DNA of 64,000 nt from Klebsiella phage vB_KpM_FBKp24. The position numbers and the translations under genes are program-made. The stretch lies in the sequence record MW394391.1, one strand, 5' to 3'. The notes under the pieces are model-generated. The model saw nothing but the letters and a program-made list of their open reading frames with translations. It searched no databases and had not been told where the DNA came from. Position 1 is the first letter of the stretch, and each line of letters starts with the position of its first letter. Below, piece by piece: positions 2,983-15,137 of this stretch.

Positions 2983-3966
2983 TTAAGCGTGTTTAAACCC
3001 TGCCCATTTAGCAGCGATGAGTTCAATGACCTTTGATCGAATATCGGCGGGAAGGTTGATGGGTAAGAAAAACTCGACTACCTTCTCCAAATCAGCAAAC
3101 GCGCTGTCTTCACTTTCTTTAAAATGTGCCGAGAAGATGGACGCTAAAGTATTAATGTTCTTTTCATCGTACATTTGCGGGTAATTAAATCCCCTGAAAA
3201 GACCCTTTAATTTTTCTAAGTCTTCGACGTTATCCAGATCAATAACCATTTTTCTTCGGTCAGACTGATTTTCTTGGATTTTGTTTACTCCGATAGCGGT
3301 AGGAGTAAAATGAGGATCTGGAACTTCAACTGGGTATAATGGTTGAACTGAGTATGGAGGAGCGTGGCGCTGGAAATGATCGATATCGACGTCTTCCCTC
3401 ATCCCCGGAAAGATTTCATCAAAACGTTCTTTGATACCCGAAGGAGTTGGTTCTTCAACACGAGAGGTATCGTTGAAGAGTAAATCAAAACCAATGATAG
3501 AAACCGATCCATTTGGAATTACTTCGCCTTCTGCTTCAGGGTCGATCTGATCTTGAGGTTTAGGGTATAAGTATTTACCGTTCGATACCAGTCGAGGTAC
3601 GAAATTATACTCCCCTTTCACAAGTCCGGTTTGGTAAGACATTAAATGGTCATGTGGGGTATTTGGGTTCAATAGCGTAATTTTACAGGAGATAATCGTA
3701 CCGGAAATATCCAGTTTGAGAAGACTGGTATTAACGGTGAACTTTGCTTCGTTCAGTAGCGGGAAGAAATTCTCCTCACGATCCCATTTCTTAGCGTCGG
3801 TACGATTGATAACACTCACGTAAGCTAACCCGGATAATGGACCTACGATGTTACCTATTGCCCGCATTAACTCTTTCACTGGGACGCCGGTGCTTTGCGA
3901 AACTTCATATAACGAAAAATAAACGATAATGCTGTCGTTACTGACTACTTTAGCTTGATGGTTCAT
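2983..3966 (-). CDS. hypothetical protein 327 aa
   Basis: Long minus-strand ORF with no recognisable motifs. Confidence 0.6.
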   Translation of the reverse strand: MNHQAKVVSNDSIIVYFSLYEVSQSTGVPVKELMRAIGNIVGPLSGLAYVSVINRTDAKKWDREENFFPLLNEAKFTVNTSLLKLDISGTIISCKITLLNPNTPHDHLMSYQTGLVKGEYNFVPRLVSNGKYLYPKPQDQIDPEAEGEVIPNGSVSIIGFDLLFNDTSRVEEPTPSGIKERFDEIFPGMREDVDIDHFQRHAPPYSVQPLYPVEVPDPHFTPTAIGVNKIQENQSDRRKMVIDLDNVEDLEKLKGLFRGFNYPQMYDEKNINTLASIFSAHFKESEDSAFADLEKVVEFFLPINLPADIRSKVIELIAAKWAGFKHA

Positions 3967-4025
3967 CTTGACCGTACCTTTTGTTTGTTAGAGTCTCCTA
4001 GCGGACTCATAATAGTTATAGGTAC

Positions 4026-6032
4026 GTGGATTTTGTTATGAGCACTAATTACGATAGGGGAATCACTGTGTTTAATTTTGCAAAAGCAGCTTTCGGAATG
4101 GTAGAGGTTGAAGAAGCAAACGGAAAAATCAAAATCACTGCTATCCGTTCTAAAGACGCGTTAAATGAAATTTATAATACTTGGCGAACATCTCGCATTG
4201 AACAAAGTATGTTCACTAAGATTACGCCCTACAGTATCGAGTTCTATAGTTTCTTTGCAGTAGAATTCGTTTACATACTGGATAAAATTATTGCCAAATC
4301 TGGCAGAAGCATGATTGCAAAGAAAACATTGAAACAAGTTAAAGAGGGCATTTTAACAAACACTTGGATGCGTTCTACTCAGATGGATCACGATCCTATT
4401 TTAGATCGTAGTAAACTGAGTCTGTTCACTAAAAGCCCACTCCGTCATCAAATGGAATTCATCGACCTCTACGACGACGTCGTTCCTAAATGGCAGCTAA
4501 ATGGATATTGCTTAGCAATGGGGACTGGCTCAGGAAAAACTCTCTCGTCGCTAATGATTGCAGAAATGCTCAACGTTGACATTATTGTCATGATATCATT
4601 AAAGGCGTCTATTTATCGTGTCTGGGAAGATGCGATGCAAAATGATTACAAGAAGACACCTGAATATTGGATTCAGGCGCGTGATGGGTCATTACCCTCT
4701 GGAACATTACCAAAGTATTTAATTTACCACATGGAAGCCATTGGTAAATTACTGGAAGATTCCGGGCGATTCACTGGTAAGAAAGTTGCGTTAATCCTCG
4801 ACGAATCCCACAAACTAAATGAACTAACTTCTCAACGTACGCAAGATATCTTACAATTCTGCAAACGTGTTCAGCCTGTTACAACGCTATGGGCTTCTGC
4901 TACGCCTATCAAAGCATATGGCTCTGAAGCCATCCCGATGCTGGCGACATTTGATAAAATGATGACGTTAGAGGCTATGGAAGCCTTTAAGAAACTGTAC
5001 GGGAAGTCAAGTAAGAAATGTTTCGACATCATTCGTCATCGTATGGGTAATGTAACATTTAAAGTGGAGGTTGTTAAATCCAACCCAATCATCGAGAACG
5101 TTCCGGTCAAACTGAAAGACCCAGAGAAGTTTTTATTGTCTACGTTGAAAATGGACATGAAAGATTATATTCTGGAACGCATTGCGTATTGGAAAAATCT
5201 CGAACCACAAGTTAAGCTGGGTTATTATTCTGGCGTAGACAAATACGCTCGTACTGTTAAGACTAAAGAACAAGAAGCTCAATTAAAACAATACCGACGT
5301 TTTGTTGAGCAAATCTCTAAAACCACCGATTACCAAATGGTGAAAGAAGAGATGATGTTCTGTAATAAGTTCGAAAAGAATTTAATCGAACCCTTACTGC
5401 GCGGAGAAGATTTAAAGAATTTCCGTAGTTACAAATCGGTGATCAAATATTTACCGTTAAAAGTCCGTGGTGAGTGTTTAGGTAACGTCGTAGGGAAGCG
5501 AAGGGAAGAAGTTACGCTTGCTTTAATACCAGCGTGTGATCTGCCTAAATACATTAAGGCGGCGGAGAAGAAAACTATTGTTTTTACCAGCTACGTGAAA
5601 GCGGTGGAAATAACAGAAGACTATCTGGTGTCGAAAGGGTTCAAACCGGTAACTGTTTACGGAGAGGGTGAAGATTTAACTAAACAAGTGAAACGGTTCT
5701 TTGATGACAATAACATTAACCCATTAATTGCAACGTATCAAAGTTTATCTACTTCCGTTCCGTTGATTGCCGCAAACGTTATTTTAGCTATTAATGCACC
5801 GTTCCGTGATTACATCATGGAACAAGCTATTGGTCGTATTGACCGTATTAACCAAAGCGCACAAACTTATGTCTTTAAATTCTATTTGGAGACATCGGAA
5901 CCTAATATCAGTAGCCGCACACTTGATATCTTAACCTGGTCGGAAGAACAGGTGAATCAGATACTCGGTGTGAAAGAGGAAGCGGTCGCGTTGGAAGCTT
6001 GGTCGCTTGAAGCTATCCCGCAGTACACGTAA
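4026..6032 (+). CDS. SF2 DExH-box helicase (SNF2/UvsW-like)
   Basis: Motif I AMGTGSGKT, motif II LILDESHKL, motif III WASATP. C-terminal helicase domain features. Confidence 0.8.
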   Translation: MDFVMSTNYDRGITVFNFAKAAFGMVEVEEANGKIKITAIRSKDALNEIYNTWRTSRIEQSMFTKITPYSIEFYSFFAVEFVYILDKIIAKSGRSMIAKKTLKQVKEGILTNTWMRSTQMDHDPILDRSKLSLFTKSPLRHQMEFIDLYDDVVPKWQLNGYCLAMGTGSGKTLSSLMIAEMLNVDIIVMISLKASIYRVWEDAMQNDYKKTPEYWIQARDGSLPSGTLPKYLIYHMEAIGKLLEDSGRFTGKKVALILDESHKLNELTSQRTQDILQFCKRVQPVTTLWASATPIKAYGSEAIPMLATFDKMMTLEAMEAFKKLYGKSSKKCFDIIRHRMGNVTFKVEVVKSNPIIENVPVKLKDPEKFLLSTLKMDMKDYILERIAYWKNLEPQVKLGYYSGVDKYARTVKTKEQEAQLKQYRRFVEQISKTTDYQMVKEEMMFCNKFEKNLIEPLLRGEDLKNFRSYKSVIKYLPLKVRGECLGNVVGKRREEVTLALIPACDLPKYIKAAEKKTIVFTSYVKAVEITEDYLVSKGFKPVTVYGEGEDLTKQVKRFFDDNNINPLIATYQSLSTSVPLIAANVILAINAPFRDYIMEQAIGRIDRINQSAQTYVFKFYLETSEPNISSRTLDILTWSEEQVNQILGVKEEAVALEAWSLEAIPQYT

Positions 6033-6093: not shown

Positions 6094-6483
6094 TTAGTTT
6101 GCGTCGGTTAAATCGAGGAATTCAATCCCCATGAAAACGCAGAGAGAAGGATCGGTAGTTGACGAGTTGGCGTACATGACCCGTATACGCGTGTCAATGA
6201 ACCGTGAGACGGCTGCAGTGAACTCGATAGGGTGAATGTATTGCTCTGGGCGAATAGGGTTCTTAAACGCTTTAGGGAACGTTGGAGGAAGGGAATTAAT
6301 CAGATCATAGTCCCATTCCCCCATAGCCGCGTACGTCTTGAGCATGATCTCTGCTTTTTGTTTGGCTTCTGCGACGCAGGGCTTCGCGTATTTCACATCA
6401 GGAGAATTATACCCCTCGGCAGCCACAGAGGAGAATGCTACAGCAGAGAGGATAAATGCGATCAGTAATTTTTTCATTTTCAT
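6094..6483 (-). CDS. secreted small protein with N-terminal signal peptide
   Basis: MKMKKLLIAFILSAVAFSSVAAEG is a typical Sec signal peptide with an AxA-like cleavage site. Confidence 0.6.
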   Translation of the reverse strand: MKMKKLLIAFILSAVAFSSVAAEGYNSPDVKYAKPCVAEAKQKAEIMLKTYAAMGEWDYDLINSLPPTFPKAFKNPIRPEQYIHPIEFTAAVSRFIDTRIRVMYANSSTTDPSLCVFMGIEFLDLTDAN

Positions 6484-6507
6484 TTCCTTGTTGTCGGTTA
6501 CGGTTAA

Positions 6508-7044
6508 TTAAGCGGTGTAATAAATAGTGGTGATACCGAGGTCTTGGTAGAGCGATGCTGCCTTAAGGGCTTCGTAATAAGTTAAGGTGTCAAATTTTGC
6601 ACCGAGATCATGTGCAAAACAAGTTGCTGAACTGTATTTCTGCGGATAGAACTCTTTGTAGAACAAACGCTGTTGTTCTGGAATATCGTAGTGATTTGCG
6701 GCGAAACTGCAAATATACGGTTCATTAAACAAGTGACGAATAAGGGTCACTGATATGCTATTAATTTGGTGGGAAGGTACTGCTGTAATAACGGGAGCGA
6801 TAAAATAAAGCTCGCCGTGATAGATAGAATAACTAAACCCTTTGACTCCGATTATTCTAAGATACAAAAGAAAGTCTTCCCACGGCGTCTTTTCCCCGGG
6901 AGTTGGGATGTTAGTAGGCTGAAACTTGAAATCGAACATGTCTGTGTAATAAAAATTACACTTGGTCACGCTAGAAAATAAAAATCTTTTCGCGGCGAGT
7001 TCGACGTGCTTATTAACCTGGGCTTCTGTCAGCGTAGTATTCAT
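6508..7044 (-). CDS. hypothetical protein 178 aa
   Basis: ORF with the promoter-like motif and a hairpin upstream (7077-7117). Confidence 0.55.
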   Translation of the reverse strand: MNTTLTEAQVNKHVELAAKRFLFSSVTKCNFYYTDMFDFKFQPTNIPTPGEKTPWEDFLLYLRIIGVKGFSYSIYHGELYFIAPVITAVPSHQINSISVTLIRHLFNEPYICSFAANHYDIPEQQRLFYKEFYPQKYSSATCFAHDLGAKFDTLTYYEALKAASLYQDLGITTIYYTA

Positions 7045-7076
7045 TTTGTTTCCTCATTCTATTAGGTTACATTAGA

Positions 7077-7087
7077 GTGATATATGC
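7077..7087 (-). promoter_or_regulatory. conserved promoter-like motif (plus-strand GTGATATATGC = TATATATCAC class read on minus)
   Basis: One of at least 8 copies of the RGTGATATATAC motif located 30-120 nt upstream of minus-strand gene starts, usually just after a terminator hairpin. Confidence 0.4.
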
Positions 7088-7357
7088 ATAAAACTGAATG
7101 GAGACCCAGGTCTCCATTCAGTGGACTATAAGAAAGTTTTCACTACTGACCATCGTTCTTCTTCATTCAATTCATCGAGGTCCGGACTCGTTGTCCCTCT
7201 ACGGAAGGTTTGGCTAAATTTCTCACCTGCTTTATCAGCATCCCCTAAACAAACAAATTCATAAGGGAGTAATAACAGCTGCTGTTTAAGGTGAGGGGAA
7301 AGATCGGAGCCCAAGGCGCTCCAACTGTTTAAACCGAGAGCGTGAAGACTAGCCGAT

Positions 7358-7627
7358 TTAAAGACGGACTCCGTTAAAAATACAGGACCGGGTTGAAGTA
7401 CTAATTTCTAAGCCGAAAACACCAACATTACCAAGGAGTCTCGTAAAGTATCGCGCTTCTTTTGGATTCTTTGTTTTCTTAGGTGCCCCTGGCGTGTAAA
7501 CTTGATACCCTCTCAGTTTATGGTCGAAACCAAATAACGGGACGGTTAAGGTATCTTCAGTTAACCAGTTAGTCGGGTAACGGTTTACGTCGTAATGACG
7601 CGTAAGTAAATGTTCGGTCATGTTCAT
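7358..7627 (-). CDS. hypothetical small protein
   Basis: ORF only. It overlaps the alternative ORF 7569-7841, and the region is ambiguous. Confidence 0.3.
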   Translation of the reverse strand: MNMTEHLLTRHYDVNRYPTNWLTEDTLTVPLFGFDHKLRGYQVYTPGAPKKTKNPKEARYFTRLLGNVGVFGLEISTSTRSCIFNGVRL

Positions 7628-9933: not shown

Positions 9934-10035
9934 TGGTTGTTCCCTTCCGGATTTGAACCGGCAACCTCCTGCTAAGCAGTGGGCGGCGCAGTGGCCGCCG
10001 GTGCAGGCGCTCTACCTAGTTGAGCTACGAGAACA
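9934..10035 (-). ncRNA. aberrant tRNA-like gene (about 102 nt) with a 23-nt GC hairpin insertion in the anticodon arm
   Basis: Canonical D-arm GCTC-AACTAGGTA-GAGC, T-loop TTCAAAT, terminal ACCA. Anticodon stem CCTGC...GCAGG is interrupted by ACCGGCGGCCACTGCGCCGCCCA before loop CTGCTTA. Confidence 0.4.
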
Positions 10036-12666: not shown

Positions 12667-12873
12667 TCATAACTCTGACGACTGAGTAAATTTTAACCAA
12701 AGTGGTAAAGGTACTTTTTGGAATTCCGTTCCTTGACACTCATTGCAGACTAACGGCTCTTCTTTGATTTTCCAGCGCTCAAGTTGTTTCTTCGTGGCTG
12801 GGGTTAAACAATTTACGCATTGCATTTCCACTGCCATAAATTTGCCTTCTAGATAAAAGACCAATCTTCCCAT
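12667..12873 (-). CDS. small zinc-ribbon protein (CVNC...CNEC)
   Basis: Two CxxC pairs. Overlaps the end of the upstream gene. Confidence 0.35.
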   Translation of the reverse strand: MGRLVFYLEGKFMAVEMQCVNCLTPATKKQLERWKIKEEPLVCNECQGTEFQKVPLPLWLKFTQSSEL

Positions 12874-13736
12874 TCGGGACGTTTAGAGTAACAACGAGCA
12901 TAAACTTCCTTTGGTTGAATATTCTCTCCCTGAGAACACTTAAAAGCATTAGCGTATTCGTTCTTACCAGCTTTTACTCGGCGACGGTAATTTGGGTTGT
13001 TTTTACTTTGTGAGTTATTCGCCTGGCGGGATTCGTTGTATTTATCCTTCCAATGACTTTTAACTTTCCGGTCCGGGCCATAGTCATCCGAACGTTCTTC
13101 AATCACAACAGGAAACCCTTGTCGCGTCTCTTTCCACCAGACAGAGAATCCCTTCGAGACATCCCAATTTTGATTTGGGTAATGACAAGACAGAAAACGG
13201 GACGCTAATCTTTTAATGGGTGTAAGATCAAAAGCAGTTTGTAACACCTTGCTGGAATGTATTCCCATCCGTAAAAATTCTTCCGTTTGTACTACAGCAT
13301 GTCTCGGCATACGAGACACTTCGCTGTAATAAACATTAGAGTCTTTAGGATGGAAAATAACGACGCCTTCAATCGTTTTGTCTTTTACATCCGGAATTTT
13401 AATTAAACCAATATGATTCCAGTTAGGGAAATGTTTACCTTGACGATTAGCGAAGTGGAGCCATAATTCATTTTCTTTCCACTCCGCTTTTTGTAGATTA
13501 AAGCCTAAGGTTACTTTGGTCAGTTGTTCTTTGAATGTATCAAGAAAAACCTGATAAAGCTCAAAGAACTCAGCAGTCAATTTTACTTCGTTACGTGAAA
13601 CAAACTGTTGTGCGGACCATTCAAGTAAGCAATGACCGAGAATTTCCCAGTCTTTATTTTCATCAGAGAAAGCGGATATCATTTTACGGAGCCTCTGGCT
13701 CAACGTCAAAATGATAATCGTAGTTGAGTCAGTCAT
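12849..13736 (-). CDS. hypothetical protein 295 aa
   Basis: Long ORF of unknown function. Confidence 0.55.
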   Translation of the reverse strand: MTDSTTIIILTLSQRLRKMISAFSDENKDWEILGHCLLEWSAQQFVSRNEVKLTAEFFELYQVFLDTFKEQLTKVTLGFNLQKAEWKENELWLHFANRQGKHFPNWNHIGLIKIPDVKDKTIEGVVIFHPKDSNVYYSEVSRMPRHAVVQTEEFLRMGIHSSKVLQTAFDLTPIKRLASRFLSCHYPNQNWDVSKGFSVWWKETRQGFPVVIEERSDDYGPDRKVKSHWKDKYNESRQANNSQSKNNPNYRRRVKAGKNEYANAFKCSQGENIQPKEVYARCYSKRPEWEDWSFI

Positions 13737-13793
13737 ATTGCCCTCGTTTTACAGTCTTCTACACTAAAAGACTGCACCGTAAAAAAGCATAAT

Positions 13794-13821
13794 AGAGAGA
13801 AGGGTTTAAACCCTTCTCTCT
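13794..13821 (-). terminator. intrinsic terminator (AGAGAGAAGGGTTT/AAACCCTTCTCTCT palindrome) downstream of the permuted tRNA loci
   Basis: 14-bp perfect palindromic stem, T-rich on the minus strand afterwards. Confidence 0.55.
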
Positions 13822-13976
13822 CGAGTTTGTTTGTCAAAAAGCGGTCTCTTTGAGAAAGAAACTTTTAGGGAAGAAGGGCGACGGATAAGGATATAACCAT
13901 CCTCACCGCCACCCATAGCCATTCAGCTATAAACAGAATCCAGCGCGACCTATTTCACAATAAGATTGGGTTTAGG

Positions 13977-14078
13977 TTTATAATCTAGTGCTCTACCAGC
14001 TGAGCTATCTGCCTCCAAGAAACACTCTGTGAATGTGTCCTGGTAGGCAGAGCGGAATTCGAATCCGCGACCTCTAGA
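13977..14078 (-). ncRNA. circularly permuted tRNA-like gene: 3' half (nt 39-76 including CCA) encoded upstream of the 5' half (nt 1-38), 26-nt linker
   Basis: Minus strand reads TCTAG-AGGTC-GCGGA-TTCGAAT-TCCGC-TCTGCCT-A-CCA, then a 26-nt linker, then AGGCAGA-TA-GCTC-AGCTGGTA-GAGC-A-CTAGA-TTATAAA. Acceptor 7/7 and anticodon stem 5/5 complementary between halves. Confidence 0.5.
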
Positions 14079-14159
14079 ATTCTTTCCGTAAAAGAAAGAA
14101 AGTTCAGTCCGCTATTTTACTGTCTACTCTTTATCTTTAAGCGTGTGAGGCGATAAGAT

Positions 14160-14300
14160 AAAGTTAACACTAACCATCCGAGTAGCATTATGGGTGCATT
14201 GATGACTGCGTCTACCAATTCCGCCATTCTCCCATAGTTTGGTGGGAGAAGAAAGATTCGAACTTCCAGTGAGGTCACCACACCTGCTATACGGACTAAC
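14160..14300 (-). ncRNA. second permuted-order tRNA-like element (type II-like): T-arm + TTCTCCC-A-CCA, 6-nt linker, then GGGAGAA + D-arm
   Basis: Minus strand reads GGAAG-TTCGAAT-CTTTC-TTCTCCC-A-CCA-AACTAT-GGGAGAA-TG-GCG-GAATTGGTAGA-CGC... The 3' acceptor strand and CCA precede the complementary 5' acceptor strand (7/7). Anticodon region not resolved by hand. Confidence 0.3.
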
Positions 14301-14369
14301 AATAAAGATAAAGTTGGCCTCAATCTTTATTATCAATGGGCACTCGTGAGAATACCCATTACTAACACA

Positions 14370-15137
14370 TTAAGCAGTGAAGTTTTTCAGGATCACGTTG
14401 GCCAGTACTTCGCCGATGGAACCCTGAACGACTTCGGTGCAGTTTGCGCGCATACGGGCATTAGTGACTTCAACGATCAGTTCGTCGATATCACGCAGCG
14501 CGTTGGCTTTCTGCATCGGTGTACACGCGCCAGAATAACTTTTACGCGTGAAGCTGCCGATCACCACGGTCGTTTCTGACTCTTTTACTTGCGCCGGATG
14601 ACGCTCGGTAGCCGGCGCCAGAATGATCGGGGTGAAGACTTTTTCGGTTTTCGTTGTGACTTCATCAGTCACAGTACGGAAGCCGTAAGTACTGTTAGCG
14701 TCGCGTTCCCACTGTTTGGAGGAATCCAGCGTAGGAGCAGACGCGATCAGTTTGCGCAGTTCGGCCAGACGTTTCTCCAGACCGAGGAGTTCATCTACCG
14801 GCACCGCTGGAACGAGGACTTCGCCTTTGAACATGATATCTGCTTTCGCTACCTGATTGGTCAGGGCTTTTTGCAGGCGCAGGTCTTCCGCGGTGGCGAA
14901 GTAATAGAACAGGTACTGCAGCGTTTCGGCGACGGTAGTGATCACCGGCTTGCTGGTACTTTCGCTTTTTTCGATCGCTGCGTTGGCGTCGCTATCTTCG
15001 TGCAGTTTCAGCGTTTTATCAAATCCGCTGAAGTATTCAGCCGATTTATTGAATTTTTTACTGGCGTCTTCGATCAGCACTTGCACTTGTTTAGTGCGAG
15101 TAGGTTCTGCTGCCAATACTTCGTGTAACTTAGCCAT
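14370..15137 (-). CDS. hypothetical protein 255 aa, strongly codon-optimised (probably abundant), A/E/K-rich
   Basis: Codon usage dominated by CTG/CGT/GAA/AAA-type preferred codons, unlike its neighbours. GGAAATTAAATG RBS. Confidence 0.65.
   Translation of the reverse strand: MAKLHEVLAAEPTRTKQVQVLIEDASKKFNKSAEYFSGFDKTLKLHEDSDANAAIEKSESTSKPVITTVAETLQYLFYYFATAEDLRLQKALTNQVAKADIMFKGEVLVPAVPVDELLGLEKRLAELRKLIASAPTLDSSKQWERDANSTYGFRTVTDEVTTKTEKVFTPIILAPATERHPAQVKESETTVVIGSFTRKSYSGACTPMQKANALRDIDELIVEVTNARMRANCTEVVQGSIGEVLANVILKNFTA

Follow-up and report, generated by a model that had tools for sequence, protein, structure and literature searches.

A stem-closed RNA with a tRNA-shaped head, encoded in permuted order downstream of a DUF7873 gene in Klebsiella phage vB_KpM_FBKp24

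Among described RNAs, the closest in design to the element reported here are the YrlA RNAs: Ro60-bound, stem-closed molecules in which an 'acceptor' stem-loop stands between a T arm on its 5' side and a D arm on its 3' side (Chen et al. 2014, PMC4201824). [quoted passage not shown] The same study cautions that the junctions of tandem tRNAs may imitate the T-arm-to-D-arm order (PMC4201824). Here we describe an element of this order on the minus strand of a 64,000-nucleotide (nt) stretch of Klebsiella phage vB_KpM_FBKp24 (MW394391.1; 'the window' below), where a first-pass annotation had noted a permuted-order tRNA-like element between positions 14160 and 14300. We refer to it as element 2 and to its companion, which lies 3' of it, as element 1; both follow a gene for a protein of the DUF7873 family.

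A 3' half that precedes the 5' half is also found in the permuted tRNA genes of Cyanidioschyzon merolae, some green algae and Thermofilum, whose anticodon loop is made by bulge-helix-bulge cleavage and ligation to give decoding tRNAs. Element 2 resembles these genes in the order of its halves, in the complementarity of its acceptor strands and in its short intervening sequence; unlike them, it has neither an anticodon loop nor a bulge-helix-bulge. With two-piece transfer-messenger RNA (tmRNA; beta_tmRNA, RF01850) it shares the succession of T arm, 3' acceptor strand, CCA, intervening segment and 5' acceptor strand. It differs in possessing a full D arm and in lacking a tag reading frame, pseudoknots and the G3-U70 pair (its acceptor has G3-C70), and ARAGORN makes no tmRNA call. 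The canonical tRNAs of the same genome (9672-11078) have the T-loop/D-loop consensus, the strand and the region in common with the two elements; element 2 is set apart from canonical phage tRNAs by its permutation and by the absence of an anticodon arm. As set out below, element 2 is a stem-closed RNA with a tRNA-shaped head and not a tRNA gene giving a decoding tRNA; we put at roughly 0.6 the probability that it is the gene for a tRNA mimic of ~120 nt that belongs to a DUF7873-coupled RNA family and acts with DUF7873.

Element 2 (14278-14202, minus strand) begins 92 nt past the stop codon of the DUF7873 gene, on the same strand. Read 5' to 3', a stem strand is followed by the T arm, the 3' acceptor strand, ACCA, 6 nt, the 5' acceptor strand, the D arm and a second stem strand; all the motifs quoted in the first-pass annotation are present on the minus strand where it had placed them. 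The parts are given below, where 'clade' denotes the related Klebsiella phages, and L102 an orthologous locus with 63% identity in DUF7873.

14279..14296, minus strand: 5' strand of the interrupted closing stem, GUCCG-UA-UAGCA-GGUGU-G (constrained fold, flank duplex statistics)
14274..14278, minus strand: anticodon-stem-like helix strand GUGAC, pairing with GUCAU at 14206-14202
14268..14273, minus strand: variable region CUCACU (read from the sequence)
14251..14267, minus strand: T arm GGAAG-UUCGAAU-CUUUC (permuted-tRNA covariance model; compensatory changes in L102)
14244..14250, minus strand: 3' acceptor strand UUCUCCC, 7/7 pairs with 14233-14227
14240..14243, minus strand: discriminator A73 and encoded CCA (invariant in the clade and in L102)
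14234..14239, minus strand: 6-nt linker AACUAU closing the acceptor hairpin, with a proposed RNase P site after U(-1)
14227..14233, minus strand: 5' acceptor strand GGGAGAA
14226-14225, minus strand: U8-G9, TG in the DNA (sequence)
14224-14208, minus strand: Leu-type D arm GCG-GAATTGGTAGA-CGC, with a 3-bp stem and the loop GAAUUGGUAGA (sequence and covariance model)
14202..14207, minus strand: A26 at 14207, then the anticodon-stem-like strand GUCAU at 14206-14202
14176..14201, minus strand: 3' strand of the closing stem: C, AAU bulge, GCACC, CAUAA bulge, UGCUA, CU, CGGAU (constrained fold)

Pairing is canonical throughout the acceptor (7/7), the T stem and the closing helix (5/5). The candidate stem GTCAT/GTGAC, which the first-pass annotation had proposed with a G-U pair, is real: five relatives read ATGAC, such that the G-U of the window becomes A-U and AUGAC is the full Watson-Crick partner of GUCAU. 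The tertiary nucleotides of the D-loop, the T-loop and the A15-U48 pair are intact, the last U of CUCACU being the residue that would form the Leu-type A15-U48 Levitt pair.

To place the element among tRNAs we used a covariance model, R1, made by permuting 21 genuine tRNAs at their anticodon loop. R1 matches element 2 from end to end (14202-14278) with 38.9 bits and an E-value of 3e-10 in 315 kb searched, and element 1 with 72.6 bits and an E-value of 8e-22, with canonical pairing throughout the latter; no other R1 match is fully paired, either in the window or in the remainder of the genome of vB_KpM_Centimanus, a phage to which the window is 99.6% identical. The model and the sequence alike confirm the complementary acceptor strands. 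Moreover, ARAGORN accepts both elements as tRNAs once their halves are re-ordered, whichever loop is inserted, and thus the expectation that the re-ordered halves would fit a tRNA model was borne out by both programs. In genomic order, neither ARAGORN nor Rfam makes a tRNA call over 14160-14300, and the curated Rfam thresholds also give nothing there; at E <= 10, Rfam shows no self-cleaving ribozyme, group I intron part or other known family in the flanks, the only matches besides noise being those to YrlA and beta_tmRNA on element 1.

The gene that precedes the two elements is the constant feature of their relatives.

14370..15137, minus strand: DUF7873 protein gene, 255 amino acids (aa), full-length match to Pfam PF25283 (E 5.5e-72)

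Searches detected homologues of DUF7873 in over 340 viral and over 576 bacterial stretches, and 159 loci (79 viral and the best 80 bacterial) were tested with R1. In the viral loci we counted an element where the acceptor had 6-7 and the T stem 4-5 canonical pairs and where it lay downstream of DUF7873 on the same strand; in all, at least one element was found in 145 loci. The first distant case was a relative at 37% DUF7873 identity, in which a third fully paired permuted element lies 3' of DUF7873. Overall, an element follows DUF7873 in 73 of the 79 viral loci, at a median distance of 159 nt and with two or three elements in 18 of them, and in all seven of the further metagenomic loci (7/7). 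Fully paired matches also occur in phiRSL1, Arthrobacter phage Racecar and Gordonia phage Ronaldo, and a weak partial match (28 bits) in Vibrio phage K479. Among the bacterial loci, 72/80 have an element downstream of DUF7873 and 41 a tandem pair, the hosts being Actinomycetes, Nostoc/Anabaena/Microcoleus, Polyangiaceae, Herpetosiphon and others. Conservation, which the first-pass annotation had named as a thing to look for, is strong both in the Klebsiella phage clade and across ~150 distant loci. In the 80 bacterial loci, no Ro60, RtcB, RNA ligase or DUF2828 is encoded within 3 kb, nor is there any other conserved protein neighbour, which indicates that the module is self-contained. It is not phage-specific either, since it is present in hundreds of bacterial genomes (tested loci L108-L187) and in the bacterial context of L104, a 246-kb contig (JGI 3300056798) in which it stands alone among genes for a LanM-like lanthipeptide synthetase, an OPT transporter and a histidine kinase.

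The homologues retain the structure through compensatory changes, and chance is excluded for that reason, in agreement with the first reading of the sequence. For the viral set (47 distinct sequences), 96.5% of alignment cells are paired, against 60.5% after shuffling and 33-47% with slid partners; all 21 of the 21 pairs change on both sides, with 340 double-sided cells. For the bacterial set (119 distinct sequences), the corresponding values are 96.4% paired against 63.6% shuffled, with 789 double-sided cells. Although both alignments had been fitted to the model, the covariation is beyond doubt in view of the slid-partner control and of how varied the acceptor sequences are. Within the L102 orthologue, the acceptor UCUCCCC/GGGGAGA has three double-sided changes and the T stem GUAGG/CCUAC has two, and both the ACCA and the UAU before G+1 are kept.

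The flanks of element 2 are themselves paired. Their duplex has a predicted energy of -30.6 kcal/mol, compared with -18.5 +/- 3.6 for shuffles, none of which (0/500) is as low, and in the constrained fold 14296-14279 pairs with 14201-14176, giving a long, interrupted stem in which only one strand is bulged. The same holds for the family at large: in 68 distinct elements the two flanks complement each other better than do mismatched-flank controls (mean z -1.53 versus -0.02, p 1e-9). No bulge-helix-bulge was found at the termini of element 2 in the constrained fold. Nor do the flanks (CAAUG.../...UG) resemble an anticodon loop: they give A at position 33 and U at position 37, hence no U33 and no R37, and the positions beside the closing helix are unconserved across the family. 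Element 2 cannot decode, because where an anticodon loop would be it has a 5-bp helix that runs into the long flank stem.

Two subtypes recur in tandem pairs on unrelated phage contigs. The upstream member has U8-G9, a 3-bp D stem GCG/CGC, the loop GAAWUUGGUAGA and A73; element 2 has the features of this subtype, and what had been described as a type-II-like 3-bp D arm is thus a D arm of the tRNA-Leu type that is found again in those contigs. The downstream member has U8-A9 and GCUC...GAGC, which is the type (class I) of element 1.

13929..14127, minus strand: element 1, a class-I-type tRNA-like RNA, core 14078-13984 (R1, Rfam YrlA, constrained fold)

The acceptor hairpin of element 1 is lengthened by a 30-nt insert, in which its CCA pairs with UGG. 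Its outer stems join 14127-14120 to 13936-13929 and 14114-14106 to 13950-13941, with an extra hairpin at 14100-14080; the unpaired 33-nt 3' internal loop is the only fast-diverging stretch of the region in the clade. Rfam YrlA (RF02553) matches element 1 with 37.9 bits and an E-value of 1.2e-6 over model positions 23-88, corresponding to the tRNA-like domain, and beta_tmRNA gives a weak local match (24.5 bits) to the permuted part. ARAGORN's 'tRNA-Stop(tta)' at 14041-14125 (minus strand) is an artefact that combines the T arm and 3' acceptor strand of element 1 with an unrelated upstream stretch; the call has been deposited as a tRNA feature in the GenBank records of Centimanus and LPKP23.

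Processing signals were assessed in 81 distinct phage elements with 7/7 acceptor pairing, 31 of which have a short linker (<=22 nt). N-CCA follows the 3' strand in 54/81 overall and in 28/31 of the short-linker members; the latter have U(-1) in 22/31 and UAU at -3..-1 in 18/31, and G+1 is present in 54/81 elements. G+1, U(-1) and CCA correspond to the preferences of bacterial RNase P and to a mature CCA end. The occurrence of N-CCA, U(-1) and G+1 in short-linker members thereby suggests RNase P cleavage that would leave a CCA end. In many long-linker members the CCA is paired with UGG, extending the acceptor helix. A further motif, (U)AUCGU, is enriched in the 3' internal loops of the family (28 seen versus 2.6 +/- 1.5 expected) and is a possible protein-binding site. 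It often occurs in two copies 3-20 nt past the closing helix (L024:3617-3660, L034:3637-3680, L031:4155-4200). The two window elements have degenerate versions only (UUAUCGCC at ~14152 and AAUCUUAUUG at ~13966) and no exact copy.

These features allow a direct comparison with YrlA. In both cases a tRNA-like domain is enclosed by a stem, the order being (V)-T arm, acceptor stem-loop and D arm in element 2, and the D/T tertiary nucleotides, the 15-48 Levitt pair, tandem RNAs beside a protein gene and occurrence in phages are common to YrlA and the window RNAs. The likeness to the M. smegmatis YrlA extends to the 7-bp acceptor stem, the short loop, the G+1/U-1 suited to RNase P and the potential for a CCA 3' end, although the CCA of element 2 is fully encoded rather than partly added, there is no Ro60 partner and cleavage would have to be deduced from the signals. 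The partner is DUF7873 instead of Ro60/TROVE; YrlA lies mostly upstream of its protein gene, whereas the DUF7873-linked RNA lies downstream; and the DUF7873-linked RNAs come in two conserved subtypes, one with a tRNA-Leu-type D arm, and are enriched for AUCGU, a different single-stranded motif, in the 3' internal loop. When Rfam 15 was run on 20 viral and 18 bacterial loci, only neighbouring tRNAs, two tRNA-Sec-model matches and two tmRNAs were above threshold, and we found no description of phage permuted tRNA-like RNAs in the searchable literature. The RNA design is already known from YrlA, and what is new is its protein partner, the existence of two subtypes, the motif set and the distribution of the family.

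DUF7873 itself has many invariant charged residues and an AlphaFold model with a pLDDT (predicted local distance difference test score) of 91. It has no match in PHROGs, PADLOC or NCBIfam, and nothing relevant was found among the PDB sequences with either the single protein or a profile; neither DUF7873 nor PF25283 is mentioned in the searchable literature. ChmC, a chimallivirus RNA-binding protein, adjoins chmA/nvRNAP (PMC11077065). An identity of DUF7873 with ChmC was considered and rejected, as DUF7873 is ~30 kb from chimallin and is also present in non-chimalliviruses and bacteria.

On the reading that we favour, element 2 would be transcribed from the minus strand, 3' of the DUF7873 gene, and its head would fold into an L shape from the T arm, the 7-bp acceptor-like hairpin and the Leu-type D arm. 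Elements 1 and 2 probably exert their function together with DUF7873, either as a ribonucleoprotein or as an enzyme with an RNA cofactor or substrate, and the RNAs may offer a tRNA-shaped surface to tRNA-binding factors. In short-linker members, RNase P might cut the acceptor loop (A-CCA-AACUAU) 5' of G+1, with subsequent trimming of the trailer; the product would consist of two RNA pieces that stay together through the acceptor and closing stems and leave the CCA end free, as in the M. smegmatis YrlA. For element 2, the 5' end expected from such processing is G14233, and the other piece should end ...UUCUCCCACCA-3' at 14240. The context of tRNA clusters and RNA-repair genes points loosely to tRNA surveillance, repair or decoy functions.

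Several observations weigh against this reading. Element 2 has no Rfam YrlA match at E <= 10. Its R1 score is not above those of tandem-tRNA junctions, which reach about 40 bits; ordinary junctions have three to five broken acceptor pairs despite such scores, and because the scores are similar it is the pairing and the comparative data, not the score, that discriminate element 2. Covariation of the closing stem is weak in the Klebsiella clade, amounting to a few one-sided or partly compensating changes and one mismatch. Most bacterial members and many upstream Leu-type members have a closed acceptor hairpin without CCA, and for this reason RNase P/CCA processing cannot be the general mechanism, only a subtype-specific one. 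The fold of DUF7873 gives no functional clue, as Foldseek searches of PDB and BFVD with the AlphaFold model returned nothing significant. Finally, the RNA is always 3' of DUF7873 on the same strand, which would also be compatible with a purely cis-acting role in the 3' untranslated region.

This last possibility, in which the elements are cis-acting tRNA-like 'punctuation' in the 3' untranslated region of the DUF7873 mRNA, RNase P and tRNA enzymes define or protect the 3' end, and no stable trans-acting RNA is made, is in our judgement unlikely. The constant position directly 3' of DUF7873 speaks for it, as do the absence of a detected promoter between DUF7873 and the elements, the terminator after element 1 and the retention of RNase P-type signals in short-linker members. 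There is also precedent in the mascRNA of MALAT1, one of the tRNA-like modules that serve 3'-end processing in other systems. Two distinct and individually conserved tRNA-like types in a fixed order are not what such a role would lead one to expect, however, and their own closing stems, the full set of D/T tertiary nucleotides and the AUCGU motif exceed the needs of a processing signal. Moreover, the closed hairpins without CCA would be poor RNase P substrates. The phage modules sit within or beside tRNA clusters, and in many phage loci an ordinary tRNA gene follows at a distance of <=50 nt, which suggests a tRNA-type operon.

It is somewhat more doubtful still that the elements are genuine Ro60-binding YrlA/YrlB orthologues that tether a Ro60, either that of the host or a phage protein not recognised as such, to nucleases or RNA-repair enzymes. 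The T arm/acceptor stem-loop/D arm order within a stem-closed RNA is that of YrlA, and tandem RNAs are known from the rsr-yrlBA-rtcBA operon of Salmonella and from M. smegmatis. Both elements miss the RF02553 gathering threshold of 69 bits, but this is a weak criterion for phage members, because the Ro-linked YrlA of mycobacteriophage Bxz1 (190 nt 5' of gp220), which served as a positive control, reaches only 32.5 bits with Rfam YrlA; it scores 40 bits with R1. By this control, the window elements are as YrlA-like as a bona fide phage YrlA, and element 1 matches Rfam YrlA no less well than the Ro-linked mycobacteriophage YrlA does. Near three phage modules, one of them with RtcB, there is additionally a DUF2828-vWA protein with a layout like that of Ro60. 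The match to element 1 is nevertheless limited to the tRNA-like domain, with the outer-stem pairs of the Rfam model broken. No Ro60 was found either: Pfam scans of the 54 largest functionally unannotated phage open reading frames (window plus the rest of Centimanus) revealed no TROVE domain, a tblastn search with Bxz1 Ro60 against 50,697 phage records matched 360 records, none of them in the clade, and the 80 bacterial loci have no Ro60, RtcB or DUF2828 within 3 kb. The Ro-binding GNCGAAN0-1G motif does not occur upstream of either window element, and 5' flanks across the family show no enrichment of it (1/68 versus 0.9 expected). The invariant genetic partner is instead DUF7873.

The first-pass annotation's permuted-order tRNA-like element stands as regards order and structure; the further step to a true circularly permuted tRNA gene, yielding a decoding tRNA after end joining and linker removal as in Cyanidioschyzon merolae, is highly improbable. 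The fit of the re-ordered halves to tRNA and the encoded CCA are in keeping with it; a polynucleotide kinase and KptA/Tpt1 are annotated in the phage, and an RNA ligase, a CCA-adding enzyme or RtcB lies near the module in some relatives. Against these stand the absence of any anticodon-loop signature (U33, R37 or conservation) beside the closing helix, the base-paired flanks without a bulge-helix-bulge, the many family hairpins that are closed without CCA and a variable region that is short for a Leu-type body; moreover, bacteria are not known to possess a tRNA splicing endonuclease. A non-functional remnant of rearranged tandem tRNA genes, or an artefact of chance or software, could be imagined from the tRNA-rich region in which the locus lies, from the ARAGORN mis-call on part of element 1 and from the mimicry of which tandem-tRNA junctions are capable, but this reading is refuted by the comparative data, namely the 7/7 acceptor match, unlike the junctions of different tRNAs, the compensatory covariation and synteny across phyla, and an intergenic region that is better conserved in the clade (95-96%) than the flanking genes (about 92%).

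Both elements lie within a 633-nt intergenic region, together with further predicted structures.

14297..14335, minus strand: predicted hairpin AAUAAAGAU...AUCUUUAUU, between the DUF7873 stop codon and element 2 (minimum free energy and constrained folds)
14129..14163, minus strand: spacer hairpin CUUUAUCUU...AAGAUAAAG, separating the two RNAs (folds; invariant in the clade)
13794..13821, minus strand: terminator-like hairpin and U run, where the transcription unit probably ends

The first of these is nearly invariant in the clade, with a single substitution, in its loop. The motif CUUUAUCUU(U/-)AU flanks element 2 twice (14300-14311 and 14152-14163, minus strand), each time as an arm of a local hairpin; by exchanging partners, the copies could form alternative pairings, a possible structural switch. 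Two more conserved hairpins lie 3' of element 1, at 13840-13930 (minus strand), ahead of the next gene (12849-13736, 295 aa), for which there is no family assignment. More widely, the window is 92-96% identical to the Siatvirus-like KpLz-2_45 group, and the phage encodes chimallin and split multisubunit RNA polymerases, indicating that it is nucleus-forming.

The cluster of ordinary tRNA genes is on the same strand as the elements, a further 3 kb downstream. Within it, a 97-nt stretch at 9938-10034 (minus strand) matches Rfam tRNA with 38 bits and is uncalled by ARAGORN; either an insertion within a tRNA or a degenerate copy might account for it. The cluster differs from that of Centimanus (L001, 555-2378), despite the near identity of the two phages at the elements: an HNH endonuclease gene that separates tRNA-Leu from tRNA-Met is confined to Centimanus, as is tRNA-Gly; the two phages also differ in the sequence of tRNA-Met, and the corresponding stretch of the window contains tRNA-Asp and tRNA-Ser. 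The cluster has the appearance of a hotspot of exchange driven by homing endonucleases. The polynucleotide kinase and the KptA/Tpt1-type RNA 2'-phosphotransferase annotated in Centimanus (L013, 17364-17960, and L014, 46618-47187) are RNA healing-and-sealing components and adjoin NAD+ salvage genes; no RNA ligase was found among the annotated products of Centimanus or the families matched by the 54 large open reading frames scanned. In one metagenomic phage (L100), genes for a PolyA_pol/CCA-adding-type nucleotidyltransferase and an RNA ligase (PF09414) are directly 5' of DUF7873 (3760-4935 and 6367-7392). The DUF2828 and vWA (DUF7788) protein lies 2-2.5 kb 3' of the module in three phage loci, one of which, L107, also has RtcB (L107:9509-10951 and 12768-13985; L043:5117-5758; L034:5564-5764); its helical N-terminus followed by vWA is the layout that resembles Ro60.

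Stem-closed tRNA mimics were hitherto known as partners of Ro60, and here the same design is coupled to DUF7873, which thereby gains its first functional lead, a tRNA-like RNA partner. The finding also explains recurring mis-annotations in jumbo phages, such as 'tRNA-Stop(tta)', and yields a candidate new Rfam family. We see about an even chance that DUF7873 and its one or two tRNA mimics constitute a previously undescribed, self-contained ribonucleoprotein or enzyme-RNA module, analogous to Ro60 and its Y RNAs but built on an unrelated protein, in Actinomycetes, cyanobacteria, myxobacteria, Chloroflexi and unrelated phages; its Leu-type member might be recognised or charged through the anticodon-independent identity of tRNA-Leu, and in phages the module would form part of a tRNA/RNA-repair toolkit. 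The module might serve in the surveillance or repair of tRNA, act as a decoy against defence nucleases that target tRNA, or control tRNA-binding enzymes, and the Klebsiella jumbo phage, Streptomyces and Nostoc offer tractable systems for studying tRNA mimicry outside translation.

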